Assembly: GCA_903904835.1 (NCBI GenBank)
Contig: CAIVEI010000058.1
Coordinates: forward strand, 8,580-72,579
Source of the DNA: an uncultured Schlesneria sp.
Lineage (GTDB): Bacteria > Planctomycetota > Planctomycetia > Planctomycetales > Planctomycetaceae
Length of the DNA: 64,000 nucleotides
Direction of reading: 5' to 3'
Shown one piece after another: positions 24,556-40,590 of this stretch. Every line of letters starts with the position of its first letter. Position 1 is the first letter of the stretch. The notes under the pieces are model-generated. The model worked only from the letters and a program-made list of their open reading frames with translations, was not told where the DNA came from and searched no databases. The position numbers were made by a program, and so were the translations under genes.

Positions 24556-24867
24556 TCACTTGAGCCTCTGGACGTTCTCGACGAACAGACGGCTGGCCAG
24601 TTCGAGATCGGCGAGGGGAAAATTCATGGCGGTTCGGTCGAGGATCAGTTTGTCATGATCGACATGGAAGACGGCGATCAGCCATTTCCCGGCCTTACAG
24701 GCACGGTCCAGACTGGCGGCGACATCGGGTGGCATCTTGGTGACAATATTGTCCGCTGAATCGGTCAGTCGTGCCTTACCATCTGGTTCCGTCCCATCCG
24801 TCGCATGCGTCCCATCAGTCCCATGTGTTTTTGAAACTTTCTTGCAAGTTGCTTTTTTCATTTCCAT
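24556..24867 (-). CDS. hypothetical protein (103 aa), last gene of the phage-like operon
   Basis: Start overlaps the upstream stop (ATGGAAATGA), which suggests translational coupling. No recognisable motif. Confidence 0.5.
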   Translation of the reverse strand: MEMKKATCKKVSKTHGTDGTHATDGTEPDGKARLTDSADNIVTKMPPDVAASLDRACKAGKWLIAVFHVDHDKLILDRTAMNFPLADLELASRLFVENVQRLK

Positions 24868-25373
24868 TTTCCCAAAGGGCAGGCCTCGGTTGCCAGGGCC
24901 AGTTTGTTGATTAATTGGTTGGTTTCGACACAGGGGCAGCCACAGACCCGGCAGTGGTTGTCAACGAGGTGTGGGCATGCCTGGCAAATTGCCAGGCGTT
25001 CATCGATTTCCGCTTGAGTCCGTCGAGGCATCCCGGATGACGTCCATCGAAACATCGCACTGGCGAAGTTCACGCCACGAATGATGAGTGGTGGAACGGT
25101 GTTGTCTTCCGTCGATTGCGGGGTGTTTTTGAAATCATGATTTGTAATCAGAGCGCGTTGAAGGCGTGCGCGTTTTGCAATGTCTCCGGTCGACCCCAAC
25201 GGAAACGATTCAACGATGTCCAGCAGCTCCGCCGCTAATTCCGGTCTGCCAAAAATGCGGCAGCATTCGGCGAATTCAATAGCCCGTGAAAGAGACTGAA
25301 CTGAGTTTTCACACGGGTTTGTCCCTCGTATCGAAATAACAGCATCAACAATCACCTGACAGTTCTTCACCAT
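24858..25373 (-). CDS. hypothetical Cys-rich (putative zinc-binding) protein, 171 aa
   Basis: C-terminal ICQACPHLVDNHCRVCGCPC...EACPLGKW cysteine cluster. Start overlaps the upstream stop. Confidence 0.55.
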   Translation of the reverse strand: MVKNCQVIVDAVISIRGTNPCENSVQSLSRAIEFAECCRIFGRPELAAELLDIVESFPLGSTGDIAKRARLQRALITNHDFKNTPQSTEDNTVPPLIIRGVNFASAMFRWTSSGMPRRTQAEIDERLAICQACPHLVDNHCRVCGCPCVETNQLINKLALATEACPLGKWK

Positions 25374-25792
25374 GTTACCTTGATATTATATTTGTTGCAG
25401 CCTCCGGTCCCTGAAGTCGTAATTATCATGCCGTTTATTGGTGTTAACGAAGATCCAGTCGAGTCGCAAAACGCATCAATTACGTGGATTTGAAGTACAC
25501 AGCTGCTTATTCGGCAGACGAGCGCAAATGACTGTGTAAAGAATCCACTGGACGATGCCGTCCAAGAGTCGGTGCCCGGGTCATATGTCAATGTTTTTGA
25601 AGTTAATCCGCCATCGAAAATTGTCCCGGAAACAATCGTGAACATGACAATCGCAGTCAAAGGCGGGCATCCGCAGGTTATCGCGTTAACTGTTCCTGAC
25701 GAACTCGAACTACTGCTAGAGGACGACGATGAACCACAACAGGGGCAGCCCTTGAGAACGACGATGTCACCGGGATTTGGCATCAGCAGCAT
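25367..25792 (-). CDS. hypothetical poly-Ser/Cys protein (about 141 aa), possible fibre or receptor-binding component
   Basis: MLLMPNPGDIVVLKGCPCCG-S12-GTVNAITCGCPP. ATG at 25792 overlaps the stop of the upstream gene. Confidence 0.5.
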   Translation of the reverse strand: MLLMPNPGDIVVLKGCPCCGSSSSSSSSSSSSGTVNAITCGCPPLTAIVMFTIVSGTIFDGGLTSKTLTYDPGTDSWTASSSGFFTQSFALVCRISSCVLQIHVIDAFCDSTGSSLTPINGMIITTSGTGGCNKYNIKVTW

Positions 25793-26397
25793 CCTCTTGC
25801 CTGGCCGTAGGTGACGGTCAGTGAGCCACCCGCACAACTGACTCCAGTGACAACCGTGATACATCCGCAGGGGGCGGTGCTGCTGGATGAACCCGATACG
25901 GACTGAGACGACGTGTTTGAACTGGAACTACTACTGCTCGACGCCGAACTTGACGATGAGTTGCAGATTGACGTAGGGACACGCTCGAACGTTCGCAGAA
26001 ACATCGATCGTTTGGGAATGCCTCCGTTTTGACTGTGACCTTGAGCAAAAAATCCGACGGTATTACTGTTTCGTGTCAGCACCCACGATCCATCCGTCGG
26101 CCCCCATTCTTCACCGGGTGCGGGATCGCTGATCGTTGGATCGACCGACACGTAAATGAACTGGTCAAAATAGGCCAATCCTTTGGCACCGGAGGCAATC
26201 GAAATATTTCCCGTGACCATGATATTGCCTGGTTTGCCGCAACCGTACTGGCCGACATGTGTAAATGACGTTGCCTCATTGTTTGTCGTTGCGGCGATCG
26301 TTTCGACGGACAGCGCAACGACGATTGATCGGGGTGGAATGGTCATTCCCGAATCGTTCTGAATGACAACGCTGATGTTTGGGGCAAGTGCGGTCAT
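25783..26397 (-). CDS. hypothetical protein with C-terminal poly-Ser/Cys region (204 aa)
   Basis: ATGA overlap with the upstream gene. C-terminus ICNSSSSSASSSSSSSSNTSS...APCGCITVV...GCC. Confidence 0.55.
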   Translation of the reverse strand: MTALAPNISVVIQNDSGMTIPPRSIVVALSVETIAATTNNEATSFTHVGQYGCGKPGNIMVTGNISIASGAKGLAYFDQFIYVSVDPTISDPAPGEEWGPTDGSWVLTRNSNTVGFFAQGHSQNGGIPKRSMFLRTFERVPTSICNSSSSSASSSSSSSSNTSSQSVSGSSSSTAPCGCITVVTGVSCAGGSLTVTYGQARGCC

Positions 26398-28262
26398 GTA
26401 TTCACATTCCCCAGGTAAGCGTTACGTCTGGCCGATTCGTATTTGACGTATTGGATTTTCTCTGAGATTCCCTGCCGCGCCGTCATCTGCCGTCGTTCTT
26501 CATAGTCTGGCGTGATATAGCTGTGTTCTGTCCCCTGACTGGCGATTGTCGAGGCGCCACTTTTGTTGATCGAATACGTCACCTGACAAATTGCGCCATC
26601 CATGTCGATGGGGAAGAGGCCGATAAACGTGGCCCGCTCGCTCGTCACCGTCTGAAACTTCCTGGCGAGCGATTGCGCGTAGTATTGGCACTGATCGACG
26701 ACTTCACCGTAATTTGTGGTGTAGGCTGAGGGGAGTCCATTGAAATAGCTCTGAACAATAACGGTGGGCCGGATATCGTCTCGAATCACGGTGTAGGCAA
26801 AGTCCTTGTCGCTGCCGCTGCCGATCTGCATCAGAAATTCGTAACGAATCGGCTGCCATGTGTCCGGGTCGCGTACCTGAAATGCATTCGTGAATGCGAG
26901 ATTCGCTTCCACCCATTCAATCGAGCTCGTATTCCTGACGACCTTTCCCTCCACGACGGAGGTGTATGAAACCGTCGTCGGATTGATTTGCTGCAACAAC
27001 TTTGGTGATACGGAAATGATCGACCGGTCGGTATCAACCGGGTCGAGGCTTAACGAAAACGAGGCTCGTTCATCCTCGCCGGAATCAGATTTCGCCCCCT
27101 GTTTATCGATTCGCGTGCCGTTCGAGCAATTTGCCAACAGTCCCTCGCACTGTTTTCCGTAGAACGAGCCTGTGATATAGGCAGGCCGTTGATGCAGCGC
27201 GCCCAGATTGTCAGTCCACATCTGCGCGAGTTCATTTGACAGGATGATCTGTTTTCGCGTGACGGGCTTGTCGATCGTCGGGACGGGATAAACCCAGTTT
27301 CCGTTACTGTCTTGTGTCGCGCCCGGTGCGTTCTCAAATTCAATTCGATAGGAATTGAAAATGGTCTCTCTCGCAAGCTCCTGGATGCTGATTTTCGTTC
27401 CATCCGGCAGCAGAAATCGAGTTGAATCGAGCCAACGAAATTCAGCACAGTCGTTTTGCCCGAATCCTCCCGACGAAAACGTTTGCGGGGTGCCACTCGA
27501 TGCTTTGATGAGAATTTCGTACGAAAGAGGCGCGTACGACAACTGTCGAAGCGGCTTCCAGCTTAAATCGGTCTCCTTTCCGATGGCCCTCAGCGGCAGT
27601 TGCATTTGATACCTGACAGGTGCCGTCACGATTTTGATGAAGTCAGGAACCTCCTGGGGGTCGATTCCCTGGCCGACATCTTGCGAGGGAAAGTTTGGAA
27701 GATCGGCACCATCCCCGGTCACAACGATTCGCCAGCTCTGCGTTGAACGAACGGGAACGACTCGACAACCAAGATCATTGCACAGCTTGTCGAGTTCTTG
27801 CGACGCGCTGGTATGGTCCCAGTCACAATCCGGGCGTGCGTCGTTTGGCAGCGCGGTCACGTCAAACGTCGATTCGCCAAGGGCTTGAAACAGTAACGTT
27901 GCAAGCTGTTGCGGAGTCTGCTCGTGGGCGGGGTCAATCCAATTATTCGGCAGTCTGATGTTGTATCGGCCCGTGATAAATCGATGGACCCATTTCCAGC
28001 GGGAATCCATGAATCGGACATCGACAATCTGTCCGCCCCCGCCGACTTCGTATTGTACGGAATCGATATGAGCGGCCGGGATCGTAATCGTCTGATTATT
28101 GTAGGTCATGACGATATCGCCATCCTCATCGGGCAATCCGTATTGCGGGAAGACCTTCATTGTTCCAATCGCCGGCTGGACGCCGGAAATATCGGTGAAC
28201 TCAAACGACTCGACCGCGGTGATGCCGGGATAAGTCACATTTCCGTGGTTATAAAGCGACAT
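26394..28262 (-). CDS. phage tail tip/hub-position protein (about 622 aa)
   Basis: Large gene in the Tal/hub position, second gene downstream of the tape measure. RBS gaggag 5 nt before ATG 28262. No motif recognised. Confidence 0.5.
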   Translation of the reverse strand: MSLYNHGNVTYPGITAVESFEFTDISGVQPAIGTMKVFPQYGLPDEDGDIVMTYNNQTITIPAAHIDSVQYEVGGGGQIVDVRFMDSRWKWVHRFITGRYNIRLPNNWIDPAHEQTPQQLATLLFQALGESTFDVTALPNDARPDCDWDHTSASQELDKLCNDLGCRVVPVRSTQSWRIVVTGDGADLPNFPSQDVGQGIDPQEVPDFIKIVTAPVRYQMQLPLRAIGKETDLSWKPLRQLSYAPLSYEILIKASSGTPQTFSSGGFGQNDCAEFRWLDSTRFLLPDGTKISIQELARETIFNSYRIEFENAPGATQDSNGNWVYPVPTIDKPVTRKQIILSNELAQMWTDNLGALHQRPAYITGSFYGKQCEGLLANCSNGTRIDKQGAKSDSGEDERASFSLSLDPVDTDRSIISVSPKLLQQINPTTVSYTSVVEGKVVRNTSSIEWVEANLAFTNAFQVRDPDTWQPIRYEFLMQIGSGSDKDFAYTVIRDDIRPTVIVQSYFNGLPSAYTTNYGEVVDQCQYYAQSLARKFQTVTSERATFIGLFPIDMDGAICQVTYSINKSGASTIASQGTEHSYITPDYEERRQMTARQGISEKIQYVKYESARRNAYLGNVNT

Positions 28263-28463
28263 TTGCTCCTCACGTTCGTAACCGTTCACGGGCTGGGGAC
28301 TGACGCATTTTCATGGAGACAAACGGCGAGCCCCGATGAGCAAACGACATCGGATTCGTCGTTTGCCCGTCGAAGGGTTCTGTCCATGTGCATTGTTCCG
28401 TTGTCCAACGCCGTGAAGGAATTTGCGGTAAGATTCGCGGTGAATCAGGCGATCCGACGAAAC

Positions 28464-28590
28464 CCCACCGCCCCTGCGGCGGTGGTCACCGGGCCTTTGC
28501 ACCAGCTCGAACCATCATTCTCCGACTTAAGCTATTAGGTAAATTCCCAGGGCAAAGGCCCGTTAACCACCGCCTCAGGGGCGGTGGGGT
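28464..28590. repeat. 38-bp imperfect inverted repeat (family G) inside the tail operon
   Basis: Arm 1 is 28464-28501 (ccccaccgcccctgcggcggtggtcaccgggcctttgc). Arm 2 is 28553-28590, its reverse complement with 3 mismatches. Each arm also holds its own 8-bp GC hairpin. Confidence 0.85.
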
Positions 28591-28645
28591 CGGTGCTTTC
28601 ACGGCGTCGCCGCGTTGCCTCAGCCACACTTTTAAAAATCACAGG

Positions 28646-29386
28646 CTATCCCCTTGCATGAGCAAACCCGACGAGCGGGTCTATTGACCTGAATTTGTAA
28701 GACCAGTTAACCGTGTATTCGAGAGGAACTCCGCGTTCCATTTTCGGGCTTGAGTAGGTCACCTGATGACAGTCAGCGCTGCCGGAAAACGCCTGTGGAA
28801 AGATTGGCAATTCAGGAGACGGATTTGGCGTTCGCATGGTCAACGACCCCGATTGAGTCGCATAGAAAAACGAGTTCGTTGAGACCGCTTGCTGAATCGG
28901 CATGCCGCTCAATGGCAACCGTTCGATCATGATTGGCCCTCCGAAGTTATCGCTGAACGACAGTTGTTCGGAATAAGCCAGGAGCGTGTCGGGTGATGAG
29001 ATGAATGTATCCATCTGCAATCCGAACGTGTAATGCAGATATGTCACGGTTTCAGCCCCGCCCATTTCCCCGTGCGAGACCGGGTTTGTGACGATCACGC
29101 CGCCGATCGCATTTGCGGTGTTCAGCCAGAATGGAGTTTGAGAACCATTATTGTCGAGAAACCCGGCGGAATTACCGTTCACAGAATAGGCATTGCGGAT
29201 GGCTGCTAACGAACCGAGTACGGAGGCCTGGCTGTTCGGTCCCTGCTGGACGATTTTCCCTTTCATCGACCATGATTCACGGAAGATGTTGGCGCGTTGC
29301 GTCGGCGAATATTGAATCGTCCGCTGAATTCCAGCGAAGTTCACTTCTCCGTTCGGATGGGTATAGCCGCCGTAATTGAATTGCAT
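28646..29386 (-). CDS. distal tail protein-position gene (246 aa)
   Basis: Immediately downstream of the tape measure (8-nt gap). Assigned by position only. Confidence 0.45.
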   Translation of the reverse strand: MQFNYGGYTHPNGEVNFAGIQRTIQYSPTQRANIFRESWSMKGKIVQQGPNSQASVLGSLAAIRNAYSVNGNSAGFLDNNGSQTPFWLNTANAIGGVIVTNPVSHGEMGGAETVTYLHYTFGLQMDTFISSPDTLLAYSEQLSFSDNFGGPIMIERLPLSGMPIQQAVSTNSFFYATQSGSLTMRTPNPSPELPIFPQAFSGSADCHQVTYSSPKMERGVPLEYTVNWSYKFRSIDPLVGFAHARG

Positions 29387-29393
29387 CTGTTGC

Positions 29394-31508
29394 CTACTTG
29401 AACCAGTATGACATGGACTTGATGTTTTTCTCGAACGCTAACTGTTGTGACTTCAGTGTCGCTTCCAGTTGTGCAAAGAACTCGTCAGCGGCGAACGCTT
29501 TCTCCATCGCCTCAACAACCTTTTTCCCGACTTCTTCGTTCTTCTGACCGAGGTCCTTGATACGGCTAAGAAGTTCAGGCTCTTCCTTGTCCTGATTCTT
29601 TTGAGCTTCGTTGGCCTTTTCTTGACTCTTTTTCAGTTCGGGCTTAATCGTCCACAAACCTGGACCATCGCCGCGTCGTTCGGCTTCCTCCTTGCCGAAG
29701 TCGTGTTCCTCAGTCCCTTCAGGTGCGTTAGCAAGTCCCTCCATGTCGAATTGAGTGATTGCCGACCGAGGGAGCTTTCCCGCTTTCACGGATTGTACTT
29801 TGGCCGTTAATGCTCGAATGCGGGTTCGTTCGCCGGGTGTGGCAAACCCGACTGATCGTTTGATCCCTTTGATTTGTTCCTTATCAGCTTCCGCATTCCG
29901 TCGTGTTTCTGCGGTGATTGCGCGAAGGGAGTTAAGTCGCTCGGCTGCGGCCTGTGCTTGCTGCTGTCCGACAGCGACGTTTTCCTTGTTGATTTTCACT
30001 TGTTCCTGAAGTTGCCTGGCAACTTCCCCAGCTCGGCCCACCTCCATTTCTTTTAACTCACTCTGGACTGACTGATTTTTTTGTTGTCGCTGGGTTTCTG
30101 TGTCGTTGCCGAGTATCGATTGACCTATGGCATTTCGGGTGCGGTGGAAGTCGCCAGCAAGATCACTTGCCGTATCAACCAGCGAATTGCCGAACGATGT
30201 CCTGCCGAGCGTCGTTTTCGCATTTCGGTAAAGCCAGCCGGACATCGTTGGTCCGGCTGGAGGGGCAGGAGGGGTGGGCGGAGTTGGAGGACGAAGTTCT
30301 TTCTTTTTCGCTTCGACTTTTCGCTGATACGCTTCTTCAGATTTTTTTATATCCGCATTGAGCGTTGCTTGCGCTGCGGCGAGGTCCTTCGGCTTCTGGT
30401 TGACGTGTTCCATCACGTTTCGCGCAGCGTCGGCGCGTTCGAGCAGTTCCTGGTGCCTCTCGGCCCTTGATCTCACTTCCTGCTGCCTGCTGAAATCGTG
30501 TGGAGACTTCGCTTGCTCGCGTCGAATCTCGGCTTCGGTCGCTGATCGTCGGTGCTCGTTCAAAGAGACCTGTCTGATCTCACCGAAATCTGGTCTCTCG
30601 CGCATGAGCTGCATTGACTGATCAGCATGACGAACAACGGCCGCATTGGCGGCAGATTCTTCGAACGTTCGATACTTCGTCTGGTCAGCCCGTTGATCTT
30701 CTTCCAGCTTTTGCGCCCAGACATTCAAGTTTCGTAATGCGACCGCAGTGGCGACCGCCGCTGCTGCAACGGCCGTCCACGGATTGAGCAAAACCGAAGG
30801 GTTGAAATTCGGGATCGATGTGAATTCGGGACTGTTGGCGTGAGCTCCGGCAATCTGATGTGCGACATTTCCAGCGCCAGTCCCGAGCACGTTGATTGCC
30901 GGAAGCAGCTTCGTCAAAAGACCCGATGATTTAAACACCGATTCTCCGGCGTGCGTGGCGACGTTCGCTGCCTGGGACGCGGATGTTGCCGCTACGGTCG
31001 CGGCCGAAGACGACCCGCTGACAATACTTGCGATTTGCTTAAACATCGCACCAACCGTTGAAAAGGTCGATCTGATGCCGGACACAAGCGTGGACTGCGT
31101 CGCCGATGCTACCGACATTGCGGATTCGGTTGCCGACTGCTGGCTTGCAGGAGTGGGGACGGGATTTTGAAACGACGAGATTGAAGGAACGCTGGGAAGA
31201 GGGACAGCGGGATTTCTTTGGGCCGCTTTAAACTGTCCGGTTACCTGCAACATCGCCGCCGGGACGGCTTTGCTGACGGGGTTGGTTCGCTGGCTGTTCG
31301 AGGCGACGTTCGGAATGACTCCGTTGAGCAACGACGCTGATGCTAAGGATGAAACCCCTGCGTTCAAGGATTGTGCCGGCTGCACCGACGGGCCCGGGGT
31401 GGTCCGAAGCTTGTTAAGCTGGCTTTGCACCTGGTTGATCGACGACGTCACCGCATTGACGCCGCCAAGCGCGACGTTAATCACGATGTCCCTGACCGTG
31501 GCTGACAT
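29394..31508 (-). CDS. tail tape measure protein (704 aa)
   Basis: Follows the G/GT chaperone pair. Ala/Ser/Pro-rich N-terminus, long charged coiled-coil-like centre (EAEIRREQAK..., QRKVEAKKKELR), PPTPPTPPAPPAGP. Confidence 0.75.
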   Translation of the reverse strand: MSATVRDIVINVALGGVNAVTSSINQVQSQLNKLRTTPGPSVQPAQSLNAGVSSLASASLLNGVIPNVASNSQRTNPVSKAVPAAMLQVTGQFKAAQRNPAVPLPSVPSISSFQNPVPTPASQQSATESAMSVASATQSTLVSGIRSTFSTVGAMFKQIASIVSGSSSAATVAATSASQAANVATHAGESVFKSSGLLTKLLPAINVLGTGAGNVAHQIAGAHANSPEFTSIPNFNPSVLLNPWTAVAAAAVATAVALRNLNVWAQKLEEDQRADQTKYRTFEESAANAAVVRHADQSMQLMRERPDFGEIRQVSLNEHRRSATEAEIRREQAKSPHDFSRQQEVRSRAERHQELLERADAARNVMEHVNQKPKDLAAAQATLNADIKKSEEAYQRKVEAKKKELRPPTPPTPPAPPAGPTMSGWLYRNAKTTLGRTSFGNSLVDTASDLAGDFHRTRNAIGQSILGNDTETQRQQKNQSVQSELKEMEVGRAGEVARQLQEQVKINKENVAVGQQQAQAAAERLNSLRAITAETRRNAEADKEQIKGIKRSVGFATPGERTRIRALTAKVQSVKAGKLPRSAITQFDMEGLANAPEGTEEHDFGKEEAERRGDGPGLWTIKPELKKSQEKANEAQKNQDKEEPELLSRIKDLGQKNEEVGKKVVEAMEKAFAADEFFAQLEATLKSQQLAFEKNIKSMSYWFK

Positions 31509-31897
31509 TGTTTCTCAATCATCCTCAATAGAGTACTTTGAAACTCGACATCTCTTGTCCTGTTCACCGATTCAATCACGCTTCGAATAACGGCGGCGTT
31601 GCGTCGTACGACCGAGTCATCAGGAAACTGCCCGACGGCTTCACACTCCTGATAGTGCTCGTAGCAGAGTTCGTTCTCGGGACTCAGCGATTTTGGATTT
31701 TCCGGTGATCCCTTCGGACATCCCCGATCAGGGTCTCGACAGGGTGCCAGAAATGACGGTCCGCAATTCAGCAACCGCAATTCCGGCTTACCATCACGAC
31801 CTCGTTCGAATGTCCATGTGTCGTGATTGACCACGTACTTCTGGCAAAGGTCGCAGTCCATCTCAGCGATCCTGGGGTGCCTCAATCGAAGACGCAC
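31481..31897 (-). CDS. gpT-like extension of the tail assembly chaperone, probably expressed by -1 frameshift from 31906..32322
   Basis: The ORF is in the -1 frame relative to the upstream gene and is open from the slippery heptamer A_AAA_AAC (31915-31909). It overlaps the tape-measure start. Confidence 0.6.
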   Translation of the reverse strand: MRLRLRHPRIAEMDCDLCQKYVVNHDTWTFERGRDGKPELRLLNCGPSFLAPCRDPDRGCPKGSPENPKSLSPENELCYEHYQECEAVGQFPDDSVVRRNAAVIRSVIESVNRTRDVEFQSTLLRMIEKQCQPRSGTS

Positions 31898-31905
31898 CCC
31901 ATCTG

Positions 31906-32322
31906 CTAGTTTTTTACTTGTTCCGCATCGGTTGGTTTTGCGTCTTCATTCGGTTTTACGTCGCTCGCCAGCGTGCCGCGAAGAATCCCGTACAGCCGAG
32001 TAAACAGGTACGGGTGAATTCGTTCGCATGCGGCTGCCGTGACGGGAACGTCGTGAATACCAACATCTTTCAGGGTCCACGAGTCAATACGGGAAGCCAC
32101 GAACTTACAGGCAATCTGTTCGGCTCGCTCGGCACATTTCGGATCGAACTCTTTGTTCCGAACCGCGACGACAATTTCCGCATCAAGTCGAGTGACGTCC
32201 ATGCGGGTGGCCGGTCGGTAAGTAAATTCCAACTCGTCGTACAATCGCTCGCCAGACTCTTCCGGCACAGCCGCTGCGATGTAGCCAGTCCTTGTGTATC
32301 CGTCTGAAATATACGATCCCAT
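31906..32322 (-). CDS. tail assembly chaperone (gpG-like)
   Basis: Lies between the tail tube and tape measure genes, is acidic, and ends ...GTA AAA AAC TAG with a canonical slippery site. Confidence 0.65.
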   Translation of the reverse strand: MGSYISDGYTRTGYIAAAVPEESGERLYDELEFTYRPATRMDVTRLDAEIVVAVRNKEFDPKCAERAEQIACKFVASRIDSWTLKDVGIHDVPVTAAACERIHPYLFTRLYGILRGTLASDVKPNEDAKPTDAEQVKN

Positions 32323-32364
32323 CTTTCATTTCTTTCTTTAAAAGGGGTTGAGAAAACTCACGAA

Positions 32365-33270
32365 TCATGCAGGCAATGTCACGACCAGTTCTTTTGTCGA
32401 ACCGTTTGCATAGGCCTGGTACTCGACTGGCCATCTCAAATGTTGTCGACCAGGGACGACCACCGACTCCGAGGGAGCAAGTAGTTTTGCGAACGTCATC
32501 GAGAACGTGTTTGTTCCGTTTGTGAACGACAAGGAACCAGACGCGGCAGTTCCCGCCCGGTTTGCGTTGAACAGAGTTTGCTCCGTTGCCGTGTATTTTG
32601 TTTGCAGGCTGAGCTTGATCACTCGGTCGGTCGGTTCCAGGTCGGTGGCAATCTGTCCCTGCATGTAAGTCGGCTGGATCATGTGGTCGATCGTGACTTC
32701 GAACTTGTCGATCGAGTAAGCCGTTCCCGAGAGTGTCACGCCGCTGGCCAGGTCGTAGAACATGTACGGCCTGATGGTCGCGTCGATTGCCGGAACCGTA
32801 TTCGGAAATGACCCGGCGGCACCTTGTGTCATCGTCTTTCCGACACACGACAACGTCATTTTCAGTTTTTCACCGGGAGCCGATTCGAACTTGGCATGGT
32901 TGACTCGCAGAAGGTATGTGTTGACCTCAGAGACATTGTCGAGCATGACGTACATATCCGTCAGTGTGTCCGCTTCCGCATACGTTCCCCCGCTCGATGC
33001 GGTTCCGAGGATGAACGGCATGAAGACTTCCAGTTCTGCCGGAGTCGGAGTCAACACCAGATCACCAGCGACTTTGATGTTTCCTTGCGCGACGCGGCTG
33101 ATGTCCCGCGACCGACTACCCCGCAAACCATCGTCCGCGACGACTTCGATCGATTCCTTGATCGAGTGCGAAAGCAACTCAAACCGTACGGAAGAACTGT
33201 TGAACGCTGTTGTTCCACTGCCAAACGGATTCACTGCCGCCTGGCTTTTAAAACCCATTGATTCTGTCAT
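32365..33270 (-). CDS. major tail (tube) protein
   Basis: 301 aa, directly upstream of the chaperone pair. Beta-rich, Thr/Ser/Gly-rich sequence. Assigned by position. Confidence 0.6.
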   Translation of the reverse strand: MTESMGFKSQAAVNPFGSGTTAFNSSSVRFELLSHSIKESIEVVADDGLRGSRSRDISRVAQGNIKVAGDLVLTPTPAELEVFMPFILGTASSGGTYAEADTLTDMYVMLDNVSEVNTYLLRVNHAKFESAPGEKLKMTLSCVGKTMTQGAAGSFPNTVPAIDATIRPYMFYDLASGVTLSGTAYSIDKFEVTIDHMIQPTYMQGQIATDLEPTDRVIKLSLQTKYTATEQTLFNANRAGTAASGSLSFTNGTNTFSMTFAKLLAPSESVVVPGRQHLRWPVEYQAYANGSTKELVVTLPA

Positions 33271-33357
33271 GTTACTGACCTTTCGTTTCTTAGCCGGTTA
33301 GAAACCGGCGTTTGTGATTAATGTTGCACCTTATGAACGGAAAAGCGGCCGAAACTC

Positions 33358-33460
33358 GGGGTGGCACGGTTTTGGAGTCCTCGACAAGGCCGTGTCTTTC
33401 TGGTTCGATAACTTCTCCGAAGAGCACGGCCTTACCGAAGACGGTAAAACTGTGCCACCC
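33358..33460. repeat. 103-bp palindromic REP/MITE-like element (family H), copy 1
   Basis: Termini ggggtggcacggtttt...aaaactgtgccaccc are inverted, and the interior is an imperfect hairpin. About 85% identical by eye to the reverse complement of 40591-40694. Confidence 0.85.
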
Positions 33461-33581
33461 TTTTCGCGGATTTCTCTTACGAACGCTTTTCCTTATCAAC
33501 AACGCAAACATCCCATCCTCTGATCTGTTCATCGGGCCAGCCTCAACCTCCCGATGTGCTGCGAACAACGCTCGCGCCTGG

Positions 33582-33908
33582 TTATGTGGTCGCTTCTGTC
33601 GAATTCGACATTTCGGTCGTTGCCGCTTTCTGTTCGACGACCGGCGGGTTTTCCGCTGGCTGTTCGATCTGAACCGCGATGGATTCCGAGATCGTGTTCA
33701 CGACAATGGATGCTTCGTTGTCGACGTGCTGAGGGGCCTGTCTGGCCTCAGCGGGCGCTTCATTGTTCCAGGCGTGAGCCGCCGTGATCGCTTCCTGGAT
33801 TGTCTTGAACGGACCGCGAATCACTCCGTCTCGATTTACCGTCGTCAGAAATCCTTCGTCGGTTGTTTGTGATGGTTCTGGTACCACGTGACAGCCGTTG
33901 ATATCCAT
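33582..33908 (-). CDS. hypothetical protein (108 aa)
   Basis: Co-oriented ORF in the phage module, 12 nt after the upstream gene. No motif recognised. Confidence 0.45.
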   Translation of the reverse strand: MDINGCHVVPEPSQTTDEGFLTTVNRDGVIRGPFKTIQEAITAAHAWNNEAPAEARQAPQHVDNEASIVVNTISESIAVQIEQPAENPPVVEQKAATTEMSNSTEATT

Positions 33909-33919
33909 GATGAGTCTCC

Positions 33920-34477
33920 TTATCCAAAAAGATTGCCGTGACTGATTTGTTTAATTCGATCCCAAAGTGTTCGACTCGAAGACACGTTCTTCTCGACGAC
34001 CGCATCGCCGATGGCGTCTGCGATTGTGGAGGCGGTCGCCGCCGCCGTTGCGTCAGCAACTCGCGTCGCGAGTTGATCGAGCGTTGCGGTATTTATTCCG
34101 ATAACCGGCCTGGCTGGCACGAACTTTGTGCCCGTCTCATGAAACGTTGCGTAATCAATGCCCGTGCCATACACCAATTCATGTGATGTGATTTCGTCAA
34201 CGTTTTGTGCTCCGCCAACATCGATGAGTGATGCTCGTAATGCCCCGGTTCTTACGAGAATCGGACTGAGGCCCTTACGTGATTGGGTCGTCTTCGCAAG
34301 TGGAGCCCATGCATCGCCATCGGGCGTCGATTGATTCGCAAAAGCGGCTCCCATTTCTTTGGCAAGTTCGTGTTGAACGTCGTTTAATACCCGAGAGAAG
34401 TTGATCCCTTCGACAATCGAAGCGGCTTCGCCTGTCCCCTGGACCAGAATCGAGTCTGTATCGAGAGATTCCGTCAT
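33920..34477 (-). CDS. HK97 gp10 / Mu G-like virion morphogenesis (tail completion) protein
   Basis: ...PDGDAWAPL...ILVRTGALRASL...YGTGIDYATFHETGTKFVPARPVIGI matches the family pattern. ATGA overlap with the upstream gene. Confidence 0.7.
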   Translation of the reverse strand: MTESLDTDSILVQGTGEAASIVEGINFSRVLNDVQHELAKEMGAAFANQSTPDGDAWAPLAKTTQSRKGLSPILVRTGALRASLIDVGGAQNVDEITSHELVYGTGIDYATFHETGTKFVPARPVIGINTATLDQLATRVADATAAATASTIADAIGDAVVEKNVSSSRTLWDRIKQISHGNLFG

Positions 34478-34917
34478 GTTCGTGGCTCCTGAAAAAATGC
34501 CCGAACCACAAGTCCACTGACAAACGCATTGCGATCAAACCATGCACGTGGTTCGACGACGTTGCCTGGTTCGACCGTCAGTTGATAGTTCTGGCCGAGT
34601 CCCGCAATCGAATGATTGTTCAGCGTTCGTCGTAATGTCTGCCGCCATGCGAGCCGTGTTTCAAGCGAATTCACATCTGGTTTCGCGATGATCGCAACAA
34701 GAACGCCGTAGTAGGCTCCATCACGGTCATTCAATTCGTCCCCCAACTTTTCTGGCCCGTACGGCGAAATTGAAACGAACGGTAATGTTGTTGTTCCGTC
34801 CAGGTACGTTGAGACTTCCTGGATCAGCGTTCCGCCCGTCAGTCCCGACAGGGAGAGTCCATCGATAACGGATTTGATCGCGGTCAGCGTGTCAAAATGG
34901 TTCGAGAGTCCCGGCAT
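34474..34917 (-). CDS. phage neck / tail-terminator-position protein (147 aa)
   Basis: Lies between the head-closure and gp10-like genes, with 1-nt and 4-nt overlaps. Assigned by position. Confidence 0.45.
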   Translation of the reverse strand: MPGLSNHFDTLTAIKSVIDGLSLSGLTGGTLIQEVSTYLDGTTTLPFVSISPYGPEKLGDELNDRDGAYYGVLVAIIAKPDVNSLETRLAWRQTLRRTLNNHSIAGLGQNYQLTVEPGNVVEPRAWFDRNAFVSGLVVRAFFQEPRT

Positions 34918-35264
34918 CAGGCGATCTCCTTTCGGGCAACGCAGTGCCAGACCGTCCTGAGGGACATCAGGCGAGCTGATACGACACGGTAATTTGTCCC
35001 TCCAATTGTGATCTGATCCCGCGCCCGGATTTCGCGTCCGTTGCTGGTAGGATTCAATTCCGAATCAGGGATCTTGATGATGGTCTCGTCACCTTGCAGG
35101 TTTAGATGTCCGTATGCGGAAAGGTTCACGTCCAGGGGTTTGAGCCAGGCGTTGAATACGTTGACCGTGATTGGCGATGCGCTGTCGGGAAGGAGCGTTA
35201 ACACGGCAGCCAGTTTCCCTGGAACGAGACCCATAAGAGATTGTGCGATGAATTGATTCAGCAT
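34917..35264 (-). CDS. head closure / head-tail adaptor protein (115 aa)
   Basis: Size, position after the connector gene, and the ...DQITIGGTNYRVVS... pattern typical of head-closure proteins. Confidence 0.55.
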   Translation of the reverse strand: MLNQFIAQSLMGLVPGKLAAVLTLLPDSASPITVNVFNAWLKPLDVNLSAYGHLNLQGDETIIKIPDSELNPTSNGREIRARDQITIGGTNYRVVSARLMSLRTVWHCVARKEIA

Positions 35265-35272
35265 CTTGGTTC

Positions 35273-35932
35273 CTAAATGGGAATCGATCGAAAATGGGCT
35301 AAGGTTGATTCAATGCTGCCTAACAGAGTGGCTGCGTCGGCAGGGCTGAAGAAGCTGATGTGTGCGTCTTCGTAACCCATCTGTGACGCAGCACCGCCGA
35401 GCGATGCTTGTGAGGCTTGCTTGAGAACCAATGCATTAACCGCCATCGTGATTGCCGGCGGTATTACCGGGAATCCCGCCGTGTATTGAACTTGAATATT
35501 GCCGTTGGGGATTCCGGGCAGATTGCTGAGCACTCCGAAGGCTCGTGCCGGAGGTCGATGCCAGGTTGTGCCAATCCGCCGAAGGAATCCCGATGAACCT
35601 TGTCCATTTGCTCCTGACATCAAGGCGAAATCAATGCCCTCGACGAGATTCAAAGACGGAGCAAAGCCACCGGGAGCGGCACCAAAGTAGCCCAGGTCAT
35701 CGACGCAAACCAGTGACACCGCCGTGACAGGATATTGGTTTAACAATAACAACGGTGTGCCGTTTCCCGAGTAGTATTCAATGTAATTTGTCGATTCGAG
35801 ATCACGATTCAAGTGTTGTTTGACGATTGACGAGACTCCGTCGATTAACGACCGAAGTTGGCCATCGCGGCTGGTGTCACCCGCTGCGATGCCTCCCTGT
35901 GTCTTAACGGATGTCAGTGTTGTCAAAGCCAT
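35273..35932 (-). CDS. gp6-like head-tail connector protein
   Basis: N-terminus LTTLTSVKTQGGIAAGDTSRDGQLRSLIDGVSSIVKQHLNRDL resembles the gp6-like connector helix pair. Confidence 0.55.
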   Translation of the reverse strand: MALTTLTSVKTQGGIAAGDTSRDGQLRSLIDGVSSIVKQHLNRDLESTNYIEYYSGNGTPLLLLNQYPVTAVSLVCVDDLGYFGAAPGGFAPSLNLVEGIDFALMSGANGQGSSGFLRRIGTTWHRPPARAFGVLSNLPGIPNGNIQVQYTAGFPVIPPAITMAVNALVLKQASQASLGGAASQMGYEDAHISFFSPADAATLLGSIESTLAHFRSIPI

Positions 35933-36151
35933 GATGAACTCAAAAACAAGGTGTTAAATGGCGATTGAAAAAATTCGTTCGGGAGGGCGAAGCTCCCACC
36001 GAGCTGCGATGTCGATGGGCACACCAATTCTTCGCTCCATGTTCAAAACATTTCCCGTTCTGGGAATCAGGCGGCTCAGTAGGAGCATCGCCCTCCCGAA
36101 ATGCTGGGTAAAAAACTCATCGCAAGAACTCTGTCACATGCCCCCAATCGT

Positions 36152-36454
36152 TCAGTCAATTTGAGGTAGCGAGGCAGTGCTTGACGTTCCTGCGTCAGCG
36201 ACGGCTGCATCGAGCTGGTCGCCGCCGGTCGCGGAGTCGTCAGCAAACTCATTGCTGTCCGTTTCGTCGCCCGGATCATCGAGTGGATCTGGATTCAGGT
36301 GTTCGGGCAGAACTGCAAGTGCCACTGCCTGCGCAGCAGCTTCCCATGCCATGCGACCGACATGGGGCAGGGCGGTCCATCCAGGAAAAGAAGGTCCACC
36401 CGATTCGGCATGAATTCGAACGTAGGATTCATAGGCTGTAAAACCGTAGCTCAT
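36152..36454 (-). CDS. hypothetical acidic protein (100 aa)
   Basis: ATG at 36454 preceded by gaggg, 8 nt after the upstream stop. The longer track ORF overlaps the neighbouring gene. Confidence 0.4.
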   Translation of the reverse strand: MSYGFTAYESYVRIHAESGGPSFPGWTALPHVGRMAWEAAAQAVALAVLPEHLNPDPLDDPGDETDSNEFADDSATGGDQLDAAVADAGTSSTASLPQID

Positions 36455-36461
36455 GTCACCC

Positions 36462-36890
36462 TCACTTTGCTGACGCGAGTTGTTTGGCGCGATTGACGAC
36501 AGCGGGAAACAAGGCCCGCGCCTGATTAATTTCAGGCTTGCCCCAGCCGTACGGTTCGTAGAACTCGGCGCTTGGATGAGCGTCAAGATCGGCGAGTGCC
36601 GCCTGGACCTTGTGCAAGTTTCCCCACGCCCTGGACATCAAGTTGATGGGATGCGTCCGTTTGAGATTTGGTGCATAGGCCAAATCCAGCGGGTTAGTCT
36701 CTTCGACGAAGAGATCTGTGTTGCCAGATTGCACGTCGTGTGCTGCGGCGACGAATATTGTCGCATCTCGGAAGCAGTCGATCGCGAGTTGACGTGGATT
36801 GATTCCTGATTGCGACGAGCGTCCCTTAAAGAGTTCCAGAGCGATCAATGGAAGGCTGAGTTTTTCTGTCGATTTTTCAGAACCTGTCAT
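36462..36890 (-). CDS. hypothetical protein (142 aa)
   Basis: Co-oriented ORF in the head module. No motif recognised. Confidence 0.45.
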   Translation of the reverse strand: MTGSEKSTEKLSLPLIALELFKGRSSQSGINPRQLAIDCFRDATIFVAAAHDVQSGNTDLFVEETNPLDLAYAPNLKRTHPINLMSRAWGNLHKVQAALADLDAHPSAEFYEPYGWGKPEINQARALFPAVVNRAKQLASAK

Positions 36891-36980
36891 GTAGTCACCT
36901 TTGTTAATTGAAGAAAGAAATGAACGGTGAAATCGAACGATGGGACGTCATCATCCCGTCAATCAATTCGTTGCCCGGAT

Positions 36981-37484
36981 TCAGACCAGCTCGTTGGGGG
37001 TCGTGCTTTGTGCGTACTTGATGCCATAAGCGATATAGAACGCTGCACCGAGTTGTGGGTTAGTCCCGGTCATCGGGATCGATAGTTGGACAAAGTTGAA
37101 TCCGTTATTGAGATCGAGATCGGTCGGCTGCACTTCAACAGCGATGACGGCCGGTGATGCAGCGCTGGTGGGAGTGAACGTATTCGCTGCCGCCTGCGTT
37201 ATCATCGTCCATTGGGGAGTTGTTGCGATTGCGCCGATCTTGGTTCTGGCACGAGTGAATGTCAGCGGTTTTGCGTTCGCACCGGCATTACTTGTGGCTT
37301 GTTTCAAAGTCATCACGGGGTCATCACCCGTAGTGCCCGCTGCTTTCAACAGCACGCACAAAAGTCGGCCAATGTACTTTATGTCGACCCATTGTCCGCC
37401 GTTCGCGGCCGAATGAAGATCGACAGGAACGAATGCCGGAATGATGTCGGCAATCTCGAGAAATTCGTGATTAAAGTCGGTCAT
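36981..37484 (-). CDS. hypothetical protein (167 aa), possible capsid accessory/decoration protein
   Basis: First gene after the major capsid gene. Beta-rich, Ala/Thr-rich. Assigned by position only. Confidence 0.4.
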   Translation of the reverse strand: MTDFNHEFLEIADIIPAFVPVDLHSAANGGQWVDIKYIGRLLCVLLKAAGTTGDDPVMTLKQATSNAGANAKPLTFTRARTKIGAIATTPQWTMITQAAANTFTPTSAASPAVIAVEVQPTDLDLNNGFNFVQLSIPMTGTNPQLGAAFYIAYGIKYAQSTTPNELV

Positions 37485-37676
37485 TGAAATCTCCTGTATT
37501 GGAAAAAAGTCATAGGAATTGCGCGTCTTGGACGCAGTGTTCCAATCGTGAAAAAGTACGAGTTGACGAAGGACCAGGCGCGTACGCTCCTTGTCGTAAG
37601 CGATCGTTGTTGATCACTCACGCTTGTCGCTGGTACTTGGGACTGATGCGGCTTGGATCGCCTCGATTCACGCGGG

Positions 37677-38966
37677 CTATCGAGGTGCGATACAGACAAA
37701 GCTCGATTGAGTATTTGTCCCTTTGAACGGCGTAATCGGGCTGTTCTCCCACGGAGCGGCGTTCATTCGCATCGTGAATCGCAGAGCCAGTTGATCGGTC
37801 AGGAACTCGACATGCATCGAAATCGCCTGTGCAATGCCCCCCTTACTGATCGAGAGCACCTGACTCAAATCGGCCAGGACGATGTCCCCCTGCGATCCGA
37901 GCGTACCTGCGAATTCGATCGGCTTCAGTGGTCGACCACCAAGCGTACCGTATGGAGATGCCGACAGTCCCGTCGGTGGCATGTAGACGAGTTGCCCCGA
38001 ATAGGTCCCTGTTGCCAACGTCAATTGCATCAACTGTTGCAGACAATCCTGGTTGACGTACCAGTTGGCGTTGCTGAAATAAGGAGCGAAGAACCGGGTC
38101 TGAGATTTGATGATATTGGCTGCCACGATGGTTGCAGGCGACTGGCCTGTTTCCGCCGCGATTGCCAGCAAGCTGGGTGCGTTCAGGATCCCGAGCGGCT
38201 TTCCAACGCCGTCACCGTTGAACAAGGCATCGCCGATCATGAAGTTGAATTCATCAGATGCCTTACGTGTTACGTACTGTTCCAGAGCTTGAGCGCTGTC
38301 TGAGATCAGTTCGTCGGTGAGATAGACGACCACAGCCAGTTTCTGCAGCTTCATCTGGATTTCACGGACCGTCGGCTTGCTGGCGGTAATCGTCTGGCCT
38401 TCGCCAGTCCAGTATCCCCTCAAACCACCGTGTCGACTGCCGTTTGCTCGCGACGTTTCCGCATTTGCCAGAAACGTCATGTTGTTTCCACCGACCGTGT
38501 AATTGTCAGTAGAAGCAACCAGGTCATTCGAATAGACATGCTCGAAGATCTTGTGGTTGAACTCGGGCATGACGGTGAATCCCCCGTCTGATCCGATTGT
38601 CTCGGACATTCCTTGAATCGCCTTGAAGTGCGATTTACAGCGGTCATGGAAAGCAGCTCCCTGATGGCCGTCGAAACCGCTACGGACAAAGTCGCTGAGC
38701 GACTTGAATTCGCCCCAGGGTCGGTATCCTCGTCGAATCAGAGAGGCCATTGCGGACTGAGACTTCATTCGCCGGCCAGCTCGTGGTCCCTCAAGTTCAT
38801 CCCGACCGGTGACAATGGTCACCGATTCATCTGTTTCGGACCACTCGCCAGTGATCCGACCCTCGGTATCACGATGGATACCGCTGAAATCAGGCTTTTC
38901 AGACAGGCTTTTGACAGTCCCTGTCAATTCGGACACTTGTTTCGTCAGTTCTTCAATCGTCGGCAT
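37677..38966 (-). CDS. HK97-family major capsid protein
   Basis: 429 aa. N-terminal delta-like helix (TIEELTKQVSELTGTVKSL), then ...GSDGGFTVMPEF..., ...LAVVVYLTDELISDS..., ...NGDGVGKPLGILN..., ...GGRPL... in the order typical of HK97-type capsids. Confidence 0.85.
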   Translation of the reverse strand: MPTIEELTKQVSELTGTVKSLSEKPDFSGIHRDTEGRITGEWSETDESVTIVTGRDELEGPRAGRRMKSQSAMASLIRRGYRPWGEFKSLSDFVRSGFDGHQGAAFHDRCKSHFKAIQGMSETIGSDGGFTVMPEFNHKIFEHVYSNDLVASTDNYTVGGNNMTFLANAETSRANGSRHGGLRGYWTGEGQTITASKPTVREIQMKLQKLAVVVYLTDELISDSAQALEQYVTRKASDEFNFMIGDALFNGDGVGKPLGILNAPSLLAIAAETGQSPATIVAANIIKSQTRFFAPYFSNANWYVNQDCLQQLMQLTLATGTYSGQLVYMPPTGLSASPYGTLGGRPLKPIEFAGTLGSQGDIVLADLSQVLSISKGGIAQAISMHVEFLTDQLALRFTMRMNAAPWENSPITPFKGTNTQSSFVCIAPR

Positions 38967-39082
38967 GGAAAAATCTTTCTATTTCACAATTCGTAAATGT
39001 AAACTCAAATTTCATCGTTGATGTCACGAACACGTTAAACACATCGAAAAAACTGGCATAGAAAGCTGTGGGGTGCAGGTAC

Positions 39083-40369
39083 TCATTTTTTGATGCTACC
39101 GACCAATCCAGCCAGTTCGTGGATCGACGTTTCCAGCATGGCAAGCTTCGTTTTGTCGATATCGGCCTGATGAGATTTCGATTGCGACACCAATCGTGCC
39201 ATCTGTCTCGCGACACCGTTCAAGGTACGGCGCTGATCGGCGGTCAGGTTTCTTGCACTGACCATTCCCTTAAGTCGTGACCCCAATCCAAGGACTTGAA
39301 GCGAGGCGATTCGACCAGAGGCGAGGAAGGCCTTCATGGCATCGTCACCCTGATCACCATCGTCCTCGTCAGCTTTGAGTGCAGGTTGATCCGGGTAATT
39401 TGATGAGTGGATCCCTTCAAGTGCCGCCAGTTGCTCATGGAGTGATACGAGAATCTCACTCAATGCATCTTTCACAGCGGGGTTTTCAAGTGGCCCCATT
39501 GCGTCTTCAATATTGTGGCATGCGGCGGTCAACGAAGCATGAATCGCCGATACAACCGTTGAGCCGTATGGCTGGTCTCCCGTCCCGTCATCGTTGTCAT
39601 CCGAGTCGACCTGGCTATTATCGGCCACGGCATCTGTGTCATCGTCGTCTACTGGCTGAATTGAGTCTGTCATTCGTTTCTCCGTTGAAAATCCGATACC
39701 TGAACGTTTAAAGGGGGTTGCCACAGCGGTTAGAGACTTCATGATCGAAGGAGTAATCGGCTGTCCGCCGAGGCGATTACGATGCAGCATTTTCGCGACC
39801 GCATCGGGATTGACTCCGATCGCACACCACGACCATTCCTCAAGATCCCATTCTTCAACGATCAACACGTCCCCCTCGACCGGGTCGTGCCGCAGGCGGG
39901 ACTTGATCGGCGTCTCACGAACCGATGTCGCCCTGACGATTCCCTCGTCGATCAGCTCGAAGATCTGAGCCGCTTCGAGTGAGGACTGAGAAAACCACGA
40001 CGTTGCCTGAACGTCGTCGTCGGAAACCGTCACAGCCACCTGGCCATTCGCATCTCGCGAAGTGCCGATCGGCTGTCCGATTCCTTCCAGCCCGTGCGCC
40101 CACATGACGACGGGGTTCTTCGAATAGTTTTCCAAACGGCAGCCACGAGGGATCAGCAGGTCACCCACTCGATCGATCGTGGCCGTCGAAATCACTGCTC
40201 GTGCCGACATCGCCTTCCGGTCGACATCGGGTTGTCCGGAAAACTCAATTGCCAGCGATCGTCCTGTCGGCGCCAGCTTATAGTGACTGCCGGGTCGACG
40301 CGGTGTGTTAACAAGACTGTTAATCACCCGTGCGTCAGTGCGTCTGTTGTTGGTGTGTCGTGTTGTCAT
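39083..40369 (-). CDS. HK97-family prohead serine protease with long acidic/helical C-terminal (scaffold-like) extension
   Basis: VISTATIDRVGDLLIPRGCRLENYSKNPVVMWAHG and EEWSWCAIGVNPDA match the S78 pattern. Directly upstream of the capsid gene. ATG at 40369; the track start is a TTG. Confidence 0.75.
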   Translation of the reverse strand: MTTRHTNNRRTDARVINSLVNTPRRPGSHYKLAPTGRSLAIEFSGQPDVDRKAMSARAVISTATIDRVGDLLIPRGCRLENYSKNPVVMWAHGLEGIGQPIGTSRDANGQVAVTVSDDDVQATSWFSQSSLEAAQIFELIDEGIVRATSVRETPIKSRLRHDPVEGDVLIVEEWDLEEWSWCAIGVNPDAVAKMLHRNRLGGQPITPSIMKSLTAVATPFKRSGIGFSTEKRMTDSIQPVDDDDTDAVADNSQVDSDDNDDGTGDQPYGSTVVSAIHASLTAACHNIEDAMGPLENPAVKDALSEILVSLHEQLAALEGIHSSNYPDQPALKADEDDGDQGDDAMKAFLASGRIASLQVLGLGSRLKGMVSARNLTADQRRTLNGVARQMARLVSQSKSHQADIDKTKLAMLETSIHELAGLVGSIKK

Positions 40370-40590
40370 GGTGCGTATTAAACACAAGTGACGACAAAAC
40401 AACAATAAGAAAACACATGTAGTTTCTTAACGTTTGGAAGATGCTCATGAGAAATGAGAAAAAACGATGTTTGTGGCGACTTCAAAAAACGTCAAAACCC
40501 GGAGGGGATGGGGGTTAGGTTCAAAGTCCCTGTTTCGGGGATTTTCCCCGTTTGGGCGACGCCGAGATGATGTTTCCAAAAAACCGATCT

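Follow-up and report, generated by a model that had tools for sequence, protein, structure and literature searches.

A Head and Tail Gene Cluster Lies among Cellular Genes

We analysed a 64-kb stretch of DNA of an uncultured Schlesneria sp. (Planctomycetaceae) of the Planctomycetota (assembly GCA_903904835.1, contig CAIVEI010000058.1, positions 8,580 to 72,579), referred to below as the window; its contig record corresponds to the 178.8-kb k141_87927 of the European Nucleotide Archive (ENA) metagenome sample ERZ27313085. Twenty co-oriented open reading frames (ORFs) for phage head and tail proteins occupy positions 24556-40369 of its minus strand, and the GC content of this cluster equals that of the surroundings. 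An earlier annotation of the same DNA, the sequence-only reading, had described such a co-oriented module with five start/stop overlaps and a glycosyltransferase gene downstream, which is of the GT25 type; from the coordinates, at least six overlaps can be counted. The gene upstream, which it had taken for a metallohydrolase gene, encodes an 834-aa protein (40812-43316, minus strand) with a signal-peptide-like N-terminus and an HHVH motif, and without a match to any Pfam or PHROG family.

Profile hidden Markov models (HMMs) supported the identity of four cluster genes, those for the HK97 major capsid protein (MCP), the head-tail adaptor, the tail completion protein and the tail tube. Among the gene labels proposed earlier, the protease was matched weakly, and "TMP", "distal tail", "neck" and "gp10-like" had no HMM support; the tape measure, Dit-like and hub-like assignments given below follow from position and size. 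The HK97 MCP, the tail tube and a G/GT -1 frameshift are shared with HK97-like morphogenetic modules, but the portal and large terminase genes are not adjacent to the head genes.

No portal or large terminase (TerL) gene was found in the window when the cluster ORFs and all large window ORFs were scanned with Pfam, PHROGs and NCBIfam models, and tblastn of the window with TerL, portal and MuF sequences of two related loci (L004 and L023) gave no match. On these scans we rejected a hidden portal or terminase among the unassigned ORFs. The window proteins gave no HMM match to an integrase, HMM scans of the cluster ORFs detected no packaging-redirection genes, and no tRNA gene was found in the window. 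No direct repeat of at least 10 nt is common to both cluster borders, hence there is no att candidate, as the sequence-only reading had also noted. A Rfam scan of window positions 22-48 kb gave no match.

The head genes come first in the direction of transcription. The gene at 39083..40369 encodes a probable prohead protease (N-terminal ~230 aa) fused to an acidic coiled-coil, scaffold-like C-terminus. The protein matches phrog_11321 and, weakly, TIGR01543 (E=0.0065, below the cut-off), residues His39, Ser96 and Ser127 are invariant in a 14-sequence alignment, and its position is that of the protease in intact prophages. The start codon is most likely at 40369 rather than at 40405, where it had been placed before. 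Searches of the PDB with the single sequence or with the 14-sequence profile gave no sequence match, and the single-sequence structure model (pLDDT 36) was not used. The ratio of nonsynonymous to synonymous divergence (dN/dS), calculated here and below by the pairwise Nei-Gojobori method against five lineages, is 0.08-0.10 for this gene. The next gene (37677..38966) encodes the HK97-fold MCP (PF05065, 2e-37, above the gathering score; phrog_10), which is 97% identical at the amino acid level across the close alleles, which we call group A (dN/dS 0.012-0.03). Then follow genes for two conserved head-module proteins, one of 167 aa (36981..37484; dN/dS 0.05-0.09), which is syntenic in all relatives, and one of 142 aa (36462..36890; dN/dS 0.06-0.16), and a gene for a 100-aa protein under looser constraint than its neighbours (36152..36454; dN/dS 0.16-0.47).

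The connector region begins with the head-tail adaptor gene (35273..35932; phrog_442, 1e-19; dN/dS 0.06-0.18). It is followed by a probable head-tail joining (head closure) gene (34917..35264; dN/dS ~0.1), the product of which has weak matches to PF05354 (4e-4, below the cut-off) and NF049848, and by a tightly constrained gene for a 147-aa neck-region protein without an HMM match (34474..34917; dN/dS 0.01-0.05). A tail completion/virion morphogenesis gene (33920..34477; PF05069, 7e-10; phrog_26; dN/dS 0.2-0.34) and a gene for a 108-aa protein, g108 (33582..33908; dN/dS 0.2-0.35), lead to the tail tube gene (32365..33270; PF18906, 4e-18; phrog_290; dN/dS 0.03-0.08). The tail assembly chaperone gene G, assigned from its position (31906..32322; dN/dS 0.014-0.03), and the T extension of the G-T frameshift product (31481..31897; dN/dS 0.06-0.09) precede a gene for a probable tape measure protein of 704 aa, so named for its position and size (29394..31508; dN/dS 0.16). 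The putative tape measure protein spans 584-890 aa in one comparison of relatives and 432-890 aa among close relatives in another, and L008 and L009 carry a different allele of it (~46% amino acid identity) between neighbour genes that are 85-99% identical. This variation in length and allele points to different tail lengths and to local recombination.

A Dit-like distal-tail gene, assigned by position and syntenic family-wide, lies at 28646..29386 (dN/dS 0.07-0.10). Behind it is a gap (28290..28645) where relatives carry a gene for a ~417-aa Thr/Gly-rich protein; tblastn of these 417-420-aa proteins against the window retrieved nothing. The following gene, g631 (26394..28262), encodes a large distal tail protein of ~622 aa, which is probably hub- or tip-like. 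It is 91% identical to its L053 homologue (dN/dS 0.08), has no HMM match and nothing meaningful in the PDB, and a metagenome scan with it retrieved one short locus only. Four small genes close the cluster. They encode a 204-aa protein with a poly-Ser linker and a Cys-rich end (25783..26397; syntenic in L051 and L053; dN/dS 0.05), a 165-aa Ser/Cys-rich protein with homologues in L051 (25367..25864; dN/dS 0.15), a 171-aa helical protein, g171, with a C-terminal Cys4 (DUF6171-like) domain (24858..25373; dN/dS 0.23), and a 103-aa protein (24556..24867; syntenic in L051 and L053; dN/dS 0.27). The g171 protein matches PF19668 (1.5e-5, below the cut-off) and phrog_13558 and has 115 homologues; a Foldseek search of the PDB and BFVD with its model (pLDDT 80) gave no match at E <= 0.001, the best matches being uncharacterised phage proteins.

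The identical capsid protein sequence occurs on contigs from several other samples, and the GTDB genomes with the closest loci are all Schlesneria. Capsid homologues form a graded series from 97% down to 55% identity, and the best MCP match in a cultured phage is only 36% identical. The nearest homologues of the cluster belong to planctomycete prophages, and no alphaproteobacterial gene transfer agent (GTA) was among the MCP matches.

Portal and Terminase Genes Form a Second Locus in Relatives

The sequence-only reading had concluded that portal and terminase are missing from the element and had proposed that orphan copies be looked for elsewhere in the genome. Their absence turned out to be an effect of the 64-kb window, as relatives encode both at a second locus. 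Schlesneria sp. T3-172 carries a 77%-identical capsid in an intact-looking prophage with the gene order TerL-portal (976 aa)-MuF-74 aa-66 aa-protease-MCP. A search with the portal of this prophage retrieved portals of 940-1000 aa that form a tight family and share 56-57% identity with it in the portal domain. The locus of these portals, which we call arm 1 to distinguish it from the cluster in the window, arm 2, consists of ~8 co-oriented genes followed by TerL, the ~980-aa portal gene and then cellular genes; examples are those of Schlesneria paludicola DSM 18645 (L020), L023 and L045. One of these contigs, L023, comes from the window's own sample, ERZ27313085. After the arm-1 portal gene there is a homologue of the 66-aa gene that precedes the protease gene in intact prophages, which places the break of the ancestral phage between the 66-aa gene and the protease gene.

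On contigs L022 and L011, the two arms lie side by side and diverge. The 227-kb ENA scaffold_37 also carries both in divergent orientation, arm 1 at 26.7-49.7 kb (leftward) and arm 2 at 97.6-118.8 kb (rightward), with ~58 kb of cellular DNA from the first arm-1 gene to the protease gene. Arm 2 of this scaffold has the window's own flanks (DsbD, M3 peptidase and an 826-aa gene), and its MCP belongs to the same 90% cluster as the MCP of the window. With the same geometry, arm 1 of the window genome would be found ~58 kb past the protease gene end of arm 2 and hence not within the 64 kb. Thus, the earlier suggestion that portal and terminase are supplied in trans holds as far as a second locus is concerned, but their source appears to be the other half of the element itself and not a helper phage.

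Besides TerL and portal, arm 1 encodes small proteins of 155 and 91 aa that have transmembrane helices, a 109-aa lipoprotein, two larger products (343 and 441 aa) and, just before TerL, a beta-helix-like 367-aa protein and a fibre-like 457-aa protein with long repeats, the C-terminus of which matches phrog_1084. The small membrane and lipoprotein genes and the fibre-like genes could serve lysis and fibre functions; no HMM backed these roles, and comparison of the 343-, 367- and 457-aa proteins with the PDB gave nothing meaningful. Neither arm gave an HMM match to integration or replication genes, with many arm-1 genes of unassigned function.

The 976-aa portal of the T3-172 prophage (L004/L015; CP172346.1, ~1.215-1.237 Mb) has a C-terminal InPase (PF18823) domain. 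Other portals of the family are fused to topoisomerase IB or to other domains, and C-terminal extensions of ~500 aa are the rule in this phage family. A related phage region (L005/L017) on CAYOYT010000001.1, a contig labelled uncultured Dongia sp., has an MCP of 63% identity, MuF, the 66-aa gene and the protease gene, with no TerL or portal gene but only small genes and an acetyltransferase gene in the 7 kb upstream. It may be a further rearranged relative, or the contig may be a planctomycete one that was mis-binned.

Arm 2 Occupies a Conserved Locus and Is under Purifying Selection

The same cellular genes enclose arm 2 in at least eight lineages (L006-L009, L010, which is T3-172, L049, L051, L053 and L054). 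Upstream are DsbD and M3 peptidase, joined in part of the lineages by GSDH and the 834-aa gene, and downstream are GT25, DUF1559 and a giant gene. The dN/dS values of its genes are mostly 0.01-0.2 at dS 0.4-1.0, comparable to those of the flanking cellular genes (0.02-0.08 at dS 0.5-0.85). The capsid (~0.02), protease and connector genes are the most constrained of the cluster, and the four small terminal genes have values of 0.05-0.27. In arm 1, dN/dS is 0.03-0.23, with 0.19 for TerL and 0.17 for portal. No frameshifts or stop codons were seen in the genes compared, ~20 of arm 2 and ~8 of arm 1, and gene losses amount to only one or two per lineage. The synteny and selection analyses that the sequence-only reading had called for support its preference for domestication over simple decay, and neither strain-specific presence nor att sites, which it had listed among the signs of an ordinary decaying prophage, were found.

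At the site of the 834-aa gene, the orthologous position of T3-172 has no such gene, and GSDH (43453-45462 in the window) is absent from L049.

Frameshift Signal and Control Region

The preserved -1 slippery site reported earlier is a heptamer A_AAA_AAC at 31909..31915 on the minus strand, directly before the stop codon of G (31906-31908). The -1 frame is open continuously from this site into T. Every group-A allele has kept the heptamer, as has most of the family.

Upstream of the protease gene is a gap of ~440 nt, previously described as ~400 nt long and repeat-containing. It includes an inverted repeat (40591..40694, minus strand) with 33-nt arms at 40591-40623 and 40662-40694, the predicted fold of which (-63 kcal/mol, z=-3.4) is followed by a U-run, GGUUUUUUGG. 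This hairpin probably terminates transcription of the 834-aa cellular gene upstream and would shield the cluster against read-through. Closer to the protease ATG, a region of ~85 nt (40373..40456, minus strand) is near 100% conserved where coding DNA is ~85% identical. It contains an operator-like palindrome, TTCCAAACGTTAAGAA on the coding strand, at 40424-40439, and TTTAAT at 40377-40382, 7 nt before the protease ATG, and we regard it as a putative promoter and regulator site; the protease transcript is possibly a leaderless mRNA. This region is the one lead towards a possible control of particle production by regulatory circuits of the host. A perfect form of the palindrome, TTCCAAACGTTTGGAA, occurs in L011 and L022. 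The intact prophage L004 has the palindrome too, in the interval from its 66-aa gene to its protease gene, so that the break left arm 2 with its native control region. A scan of the cluster for sigma-70 promoters retrieved fewer sites than expected by chance and was uninformative.

Arm-2 Alleles Differ between Conspecific Strains

L053 and L054 are from a strain conspecific with that of the window, with 99.6-100% identity in the giant gene, 98% in GSDH and ~94% in M3 peptidase. Their arm 2 is only 77-92% identical to that of the window, ~85% on average, and identity drops within the 834-aa gene, at its 3' end, and within GT25, at its 5' end. Moreover, the arm-2 allele of L054 is closer to those of L049 and L006 than to that of the window, while the relationships of the flanks are the opposite. 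As these tracts end in cellular genes, the donors would be chromosomes with the same split locus and not phages. The arm-2 alleles therefore appear either to have been swapped from one Schlesneria chromosome to another through recombination in the flanks or to be old haplotypes kept by balancing selection. This weakens a strictly vertical model of inheritance but not the case for function. An assembly chimera was considered as the cause of the allele jump and rejected, as both alleles recur on many independent assemblies. The replacement of alleles within a species hints at frequency-dependent selection on particle specificity.

The Two Arms as a Proposed Split Domesticated Particle System

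The best reading of arm 2 is that of the capsid and tail half of a two-locus, phage-derived system fixed in the Schlesneria chromosome. By predicted gene content, the two arms together make up a full head, packaging and tail set. The conserved locus, the intact ORFs and dN/dS values matching those of flanking cellular genes argue for a split, selectively maintained particle system, GTA-like or PBSX-like, and we lean slightly towards the production of GTA-like particles. Both arms descend from one siphovirus-like prophage (TerL-portal-MuF-x-66 aa-protease-capsid) that was split in an intergenic gap, just ahead of the promoter of the protease gene. Arm 2, under its own promoter/operator region, would supply protease and scaffold, HK97 capsid, connectors and a non-contractile tail, and arm 1 would supply TerL, the ~980-aa portal, fibre-like proteins and small membrane and lipoproteins, possibly for lysis. 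Co-expressed, the arms may assemble DNA-filled tailed particles. As they are too far apart for such particles to carry their own dispersed genome, the particles would package host DNA, and the element would be kept for a benefit at the level of the host.

A fuller version of this proposal, an independently evolved two-locus GTA of the Planctomycetota with co-expressed arms, operator-controlled promoters, host-DNA particles and gene flow between strains that includes the alleles of the element itself, is tentative and rather unlikely. The GTA of Rhodobacter capsulatus (RcGTA) and related alphaproteobacterial GTAs are likewise chromosomally fixed head-tail sets at multiple loci, without integrase and replication genes, under host-like purifying selection, and with an HK97-fold capsid, a G/GT frameshift and a siphovirus-type tail. 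In contrast to RcGTA, the Schlesneria element appears to be of independent origin, with planctomycete prophages as its nearest relatives; its TerL and portal genes are apart from protease and capsid genes, whereas RcGTA has TerS, TerL and portal in one head cluster with the capsid; and its arm 2 shows whole-allele replacement between conspecifics. Judged by g1-g15 orthology and by the TerS-TerL-portal-protease-MCP cluster, it is outside the RcGTA sequence family. What is new is thus a candidate domesticated phage-particle system, independently derived and with an unusual split. The literature searched describes neither a GTA in Planctomycetes or Planctomycetota, in agreement with the sequence-only reading, nor a comparable domesticated system of phage particles in Planctomycetota, nor prophages of Schlesneria.

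Several observations weigh against a maintained two-arm system. The link between arm 1 and the window genome is indirect, through the shared sample and the scaffold of a sister lineage, and T3-172 has arm 2 (L010), yet no arm-1-type portal was among the portal matches. HMM scans revealed no TerS, holin or endolysin, the split form lacks MuF, and the arm-1 stretch between the 91-aa gene and TerL is variable or fragmented among lineages. The tail completion gene is deleted in L007 and L010 and 5'-truncated in L049, and is thus dispensable in some lineages; together with g108, it is less constrained than the rest (dN/dS 0.2-0.35). The ~417-aa gene of the interval between the Dit-like gene and g631 is present in L010, L051, L053 and L054 and missing in the window and L008. 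Finally, the low dN/dS between alleles could come in part from selection in a shared recombining gene pool.

The main rival explanation is a PBSX-like defective phage or phibacin that kills non-kin Schlesneria cells and packages DNA incidentally. We consider it unlikely, even though the allele pattern, with conspecific strains (flanks 94-100% identical) carrying arm-2 alleles ~15% apart and with disagreeing phylogenies of arm and flanks, is what loci under frequency-dependent selection typically show. Lineages also vary in their distal tail and fibre genes: the 417-aa beta-helix-like gene is present in some and absent from others, and the fibre-like genes of arm 1 differ. However, capsid, TerL and portal, which a pure killing particle does not need (though PBSX keeps them), are under purifying selection, the divergence spans the head genes and not only specificity genes, and no toxin gene was recognised, nor was an immunity gene detectable in either arm. 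PBSX of Bacillus subtilis resembles the Schlesneria element as a chromosomally fixed set of head, tail, terminase and portal genes without replication genes and with strain-specific variants, but it is a contiguous 28-kb unit with a known repressor and a lysis cassette, whereas Schlesneria has two loci ~58 kb apart and no regulator or lysis enzyme was identified. F-type tailocins share with it a chromosomally fixed, non-contractile tail module at a conserved locus and allelic diversity between strains. Unlike the Schlesneria element, in which they are among the most constrained genes, tailocins have no capsid, portal and terminase.

An ordinary defective prophage, split and slowly decaying, with apparent constraint caused by recombination with active relatives, seems quite improbable. 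The losses of the tail completion gene, MuF and the 417-aa gene would fit it, as would active-looking relatives (MCP 85% identical) that keep the colinear order MuF-66-protease-MCP (L026) and the intact related prophage co-resident in T3-172. The latter (L004/L015) has a homologous protease (65% in the N-terminal domain), MCP (77%), adaptor, tube and G/T pair, and it shares the slippery site and the palindrome that precedes the protease gene; unlike the window element, which is broken between the 66-aa gene and the protease gene and lacks MuF, it is colinear and carries MuF. Slow decay is hard to reconcile with ~20 arm-2 and ~8 arm-1 genes open at dS 0.4-1.0 and dN/dS 0.01-0.2, with identical flanks in at least eight lineages, with recombination tracts that end in cellular genes and so point to chromosomes and not phages as donors, and with a conserved regulatory element. 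Integrase, att and tRNA signs of a decaying prophage were not found, and the cluster is not strain-specific but present in all close lineages.

A helper-dependent, satellite-like element that uses the portal and terminase of a co-resident intact prophage is very improbable. It would fit T3-172, in which arm 2 is accompanied by an intact related prophage encoding TerL, portal and MuF and no arm-1 portal was detected. Against it, the genomes of group A have an arm 1 of their own, the locus is fixed and without att sites, the arm-1 portal shares only 57% identity with that of the prophage, and the integrase, replication module and packaging-redirection genes of phage satellites (phage-inducible chromosomal islands, PICI, and cf-PICI), like excision genes, were not detected in the Schlesneria cluster. 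Both simple decay and helper dependence are less likely than the GTA-like or PBSX-like reading.

If the two arms are indeed a maintained particle kit, they would offer a testable route of horizontal gene transfer, and possibly a DNA-delivery tool, in Planctomycetota, bacteria with unusual cell envelopes and few genetic tools. They would add a further independent case of phage domestication, in which the split of portal and terminase from capsid and tail tells which of the genes need not stay linked. A cultured type strain has at least half of the kit, as arm 1 is in the S. paludicola DSM 18645 assembly, and arm 2 was found in a metagenome-assembled genome assigned to Schlesneria paludicola.

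Other Features of the Window

An inverted second copy of the operator-like motif lies at 45874-45947 on the plus strand; its 29-nt arms show 79% complementarity to 40422-40450. The copy, with TTGACG-17 nt-TAATAT behind it, faces away from the cluster, towards non-coding DNA rich in repeats, and is kept in L007, L008, L049 and L054. A non-coding region at 46230-47600 is repeat-dense, with a 10-nt-periodic array of TCGAACTNNG (13 copies in register), two repeat units of ~350 nt, and GTTGCGCAAA (palindromic core TTGCGCAA) occurring six times. Repeat copy numbers differ strongly between close strains (6 vs 1 in L054), and the repeats look like arrays of protein-binding sites. A dispersed motif, GAACAGAAGG...CGAAGGTAACGAAG, has only four copies in the 64 kb, where chance would give 0. 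Two of them form an inverted pair at the cluster's downstream border (24223-24249 and, inverted, 24371-24397), and the other two are in the repeat region beyond the upstream flank (46585-46611 and 46935-46961). As the similarity ends within ~40 nt, the motif is not an obvious att site.

On the downstream side, the DUF1559/N-terminal-methylation (pilin-like) gene at 20878-22071 (plus strand) has ~62% nucleotide identity to its counterpart in another strain, in which the adjacent gene for a 1989-aa protein is 100% identical; the DUF1559 gene is thus hypervariable separately from arm 2. A large type IV pilus/type II secretion-like cluster occupies 1326-20665 (plus strand) and encodes three T2SSE ATPases, T2SSF, five prepilin-type N-methyl proteins and a 1989-aa protein without a Pfam match. 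At the other end of the window, positions 52386-63915 (minus strand) hold two very large ORFs (2800 and 1026 aa) without a Pfam match.

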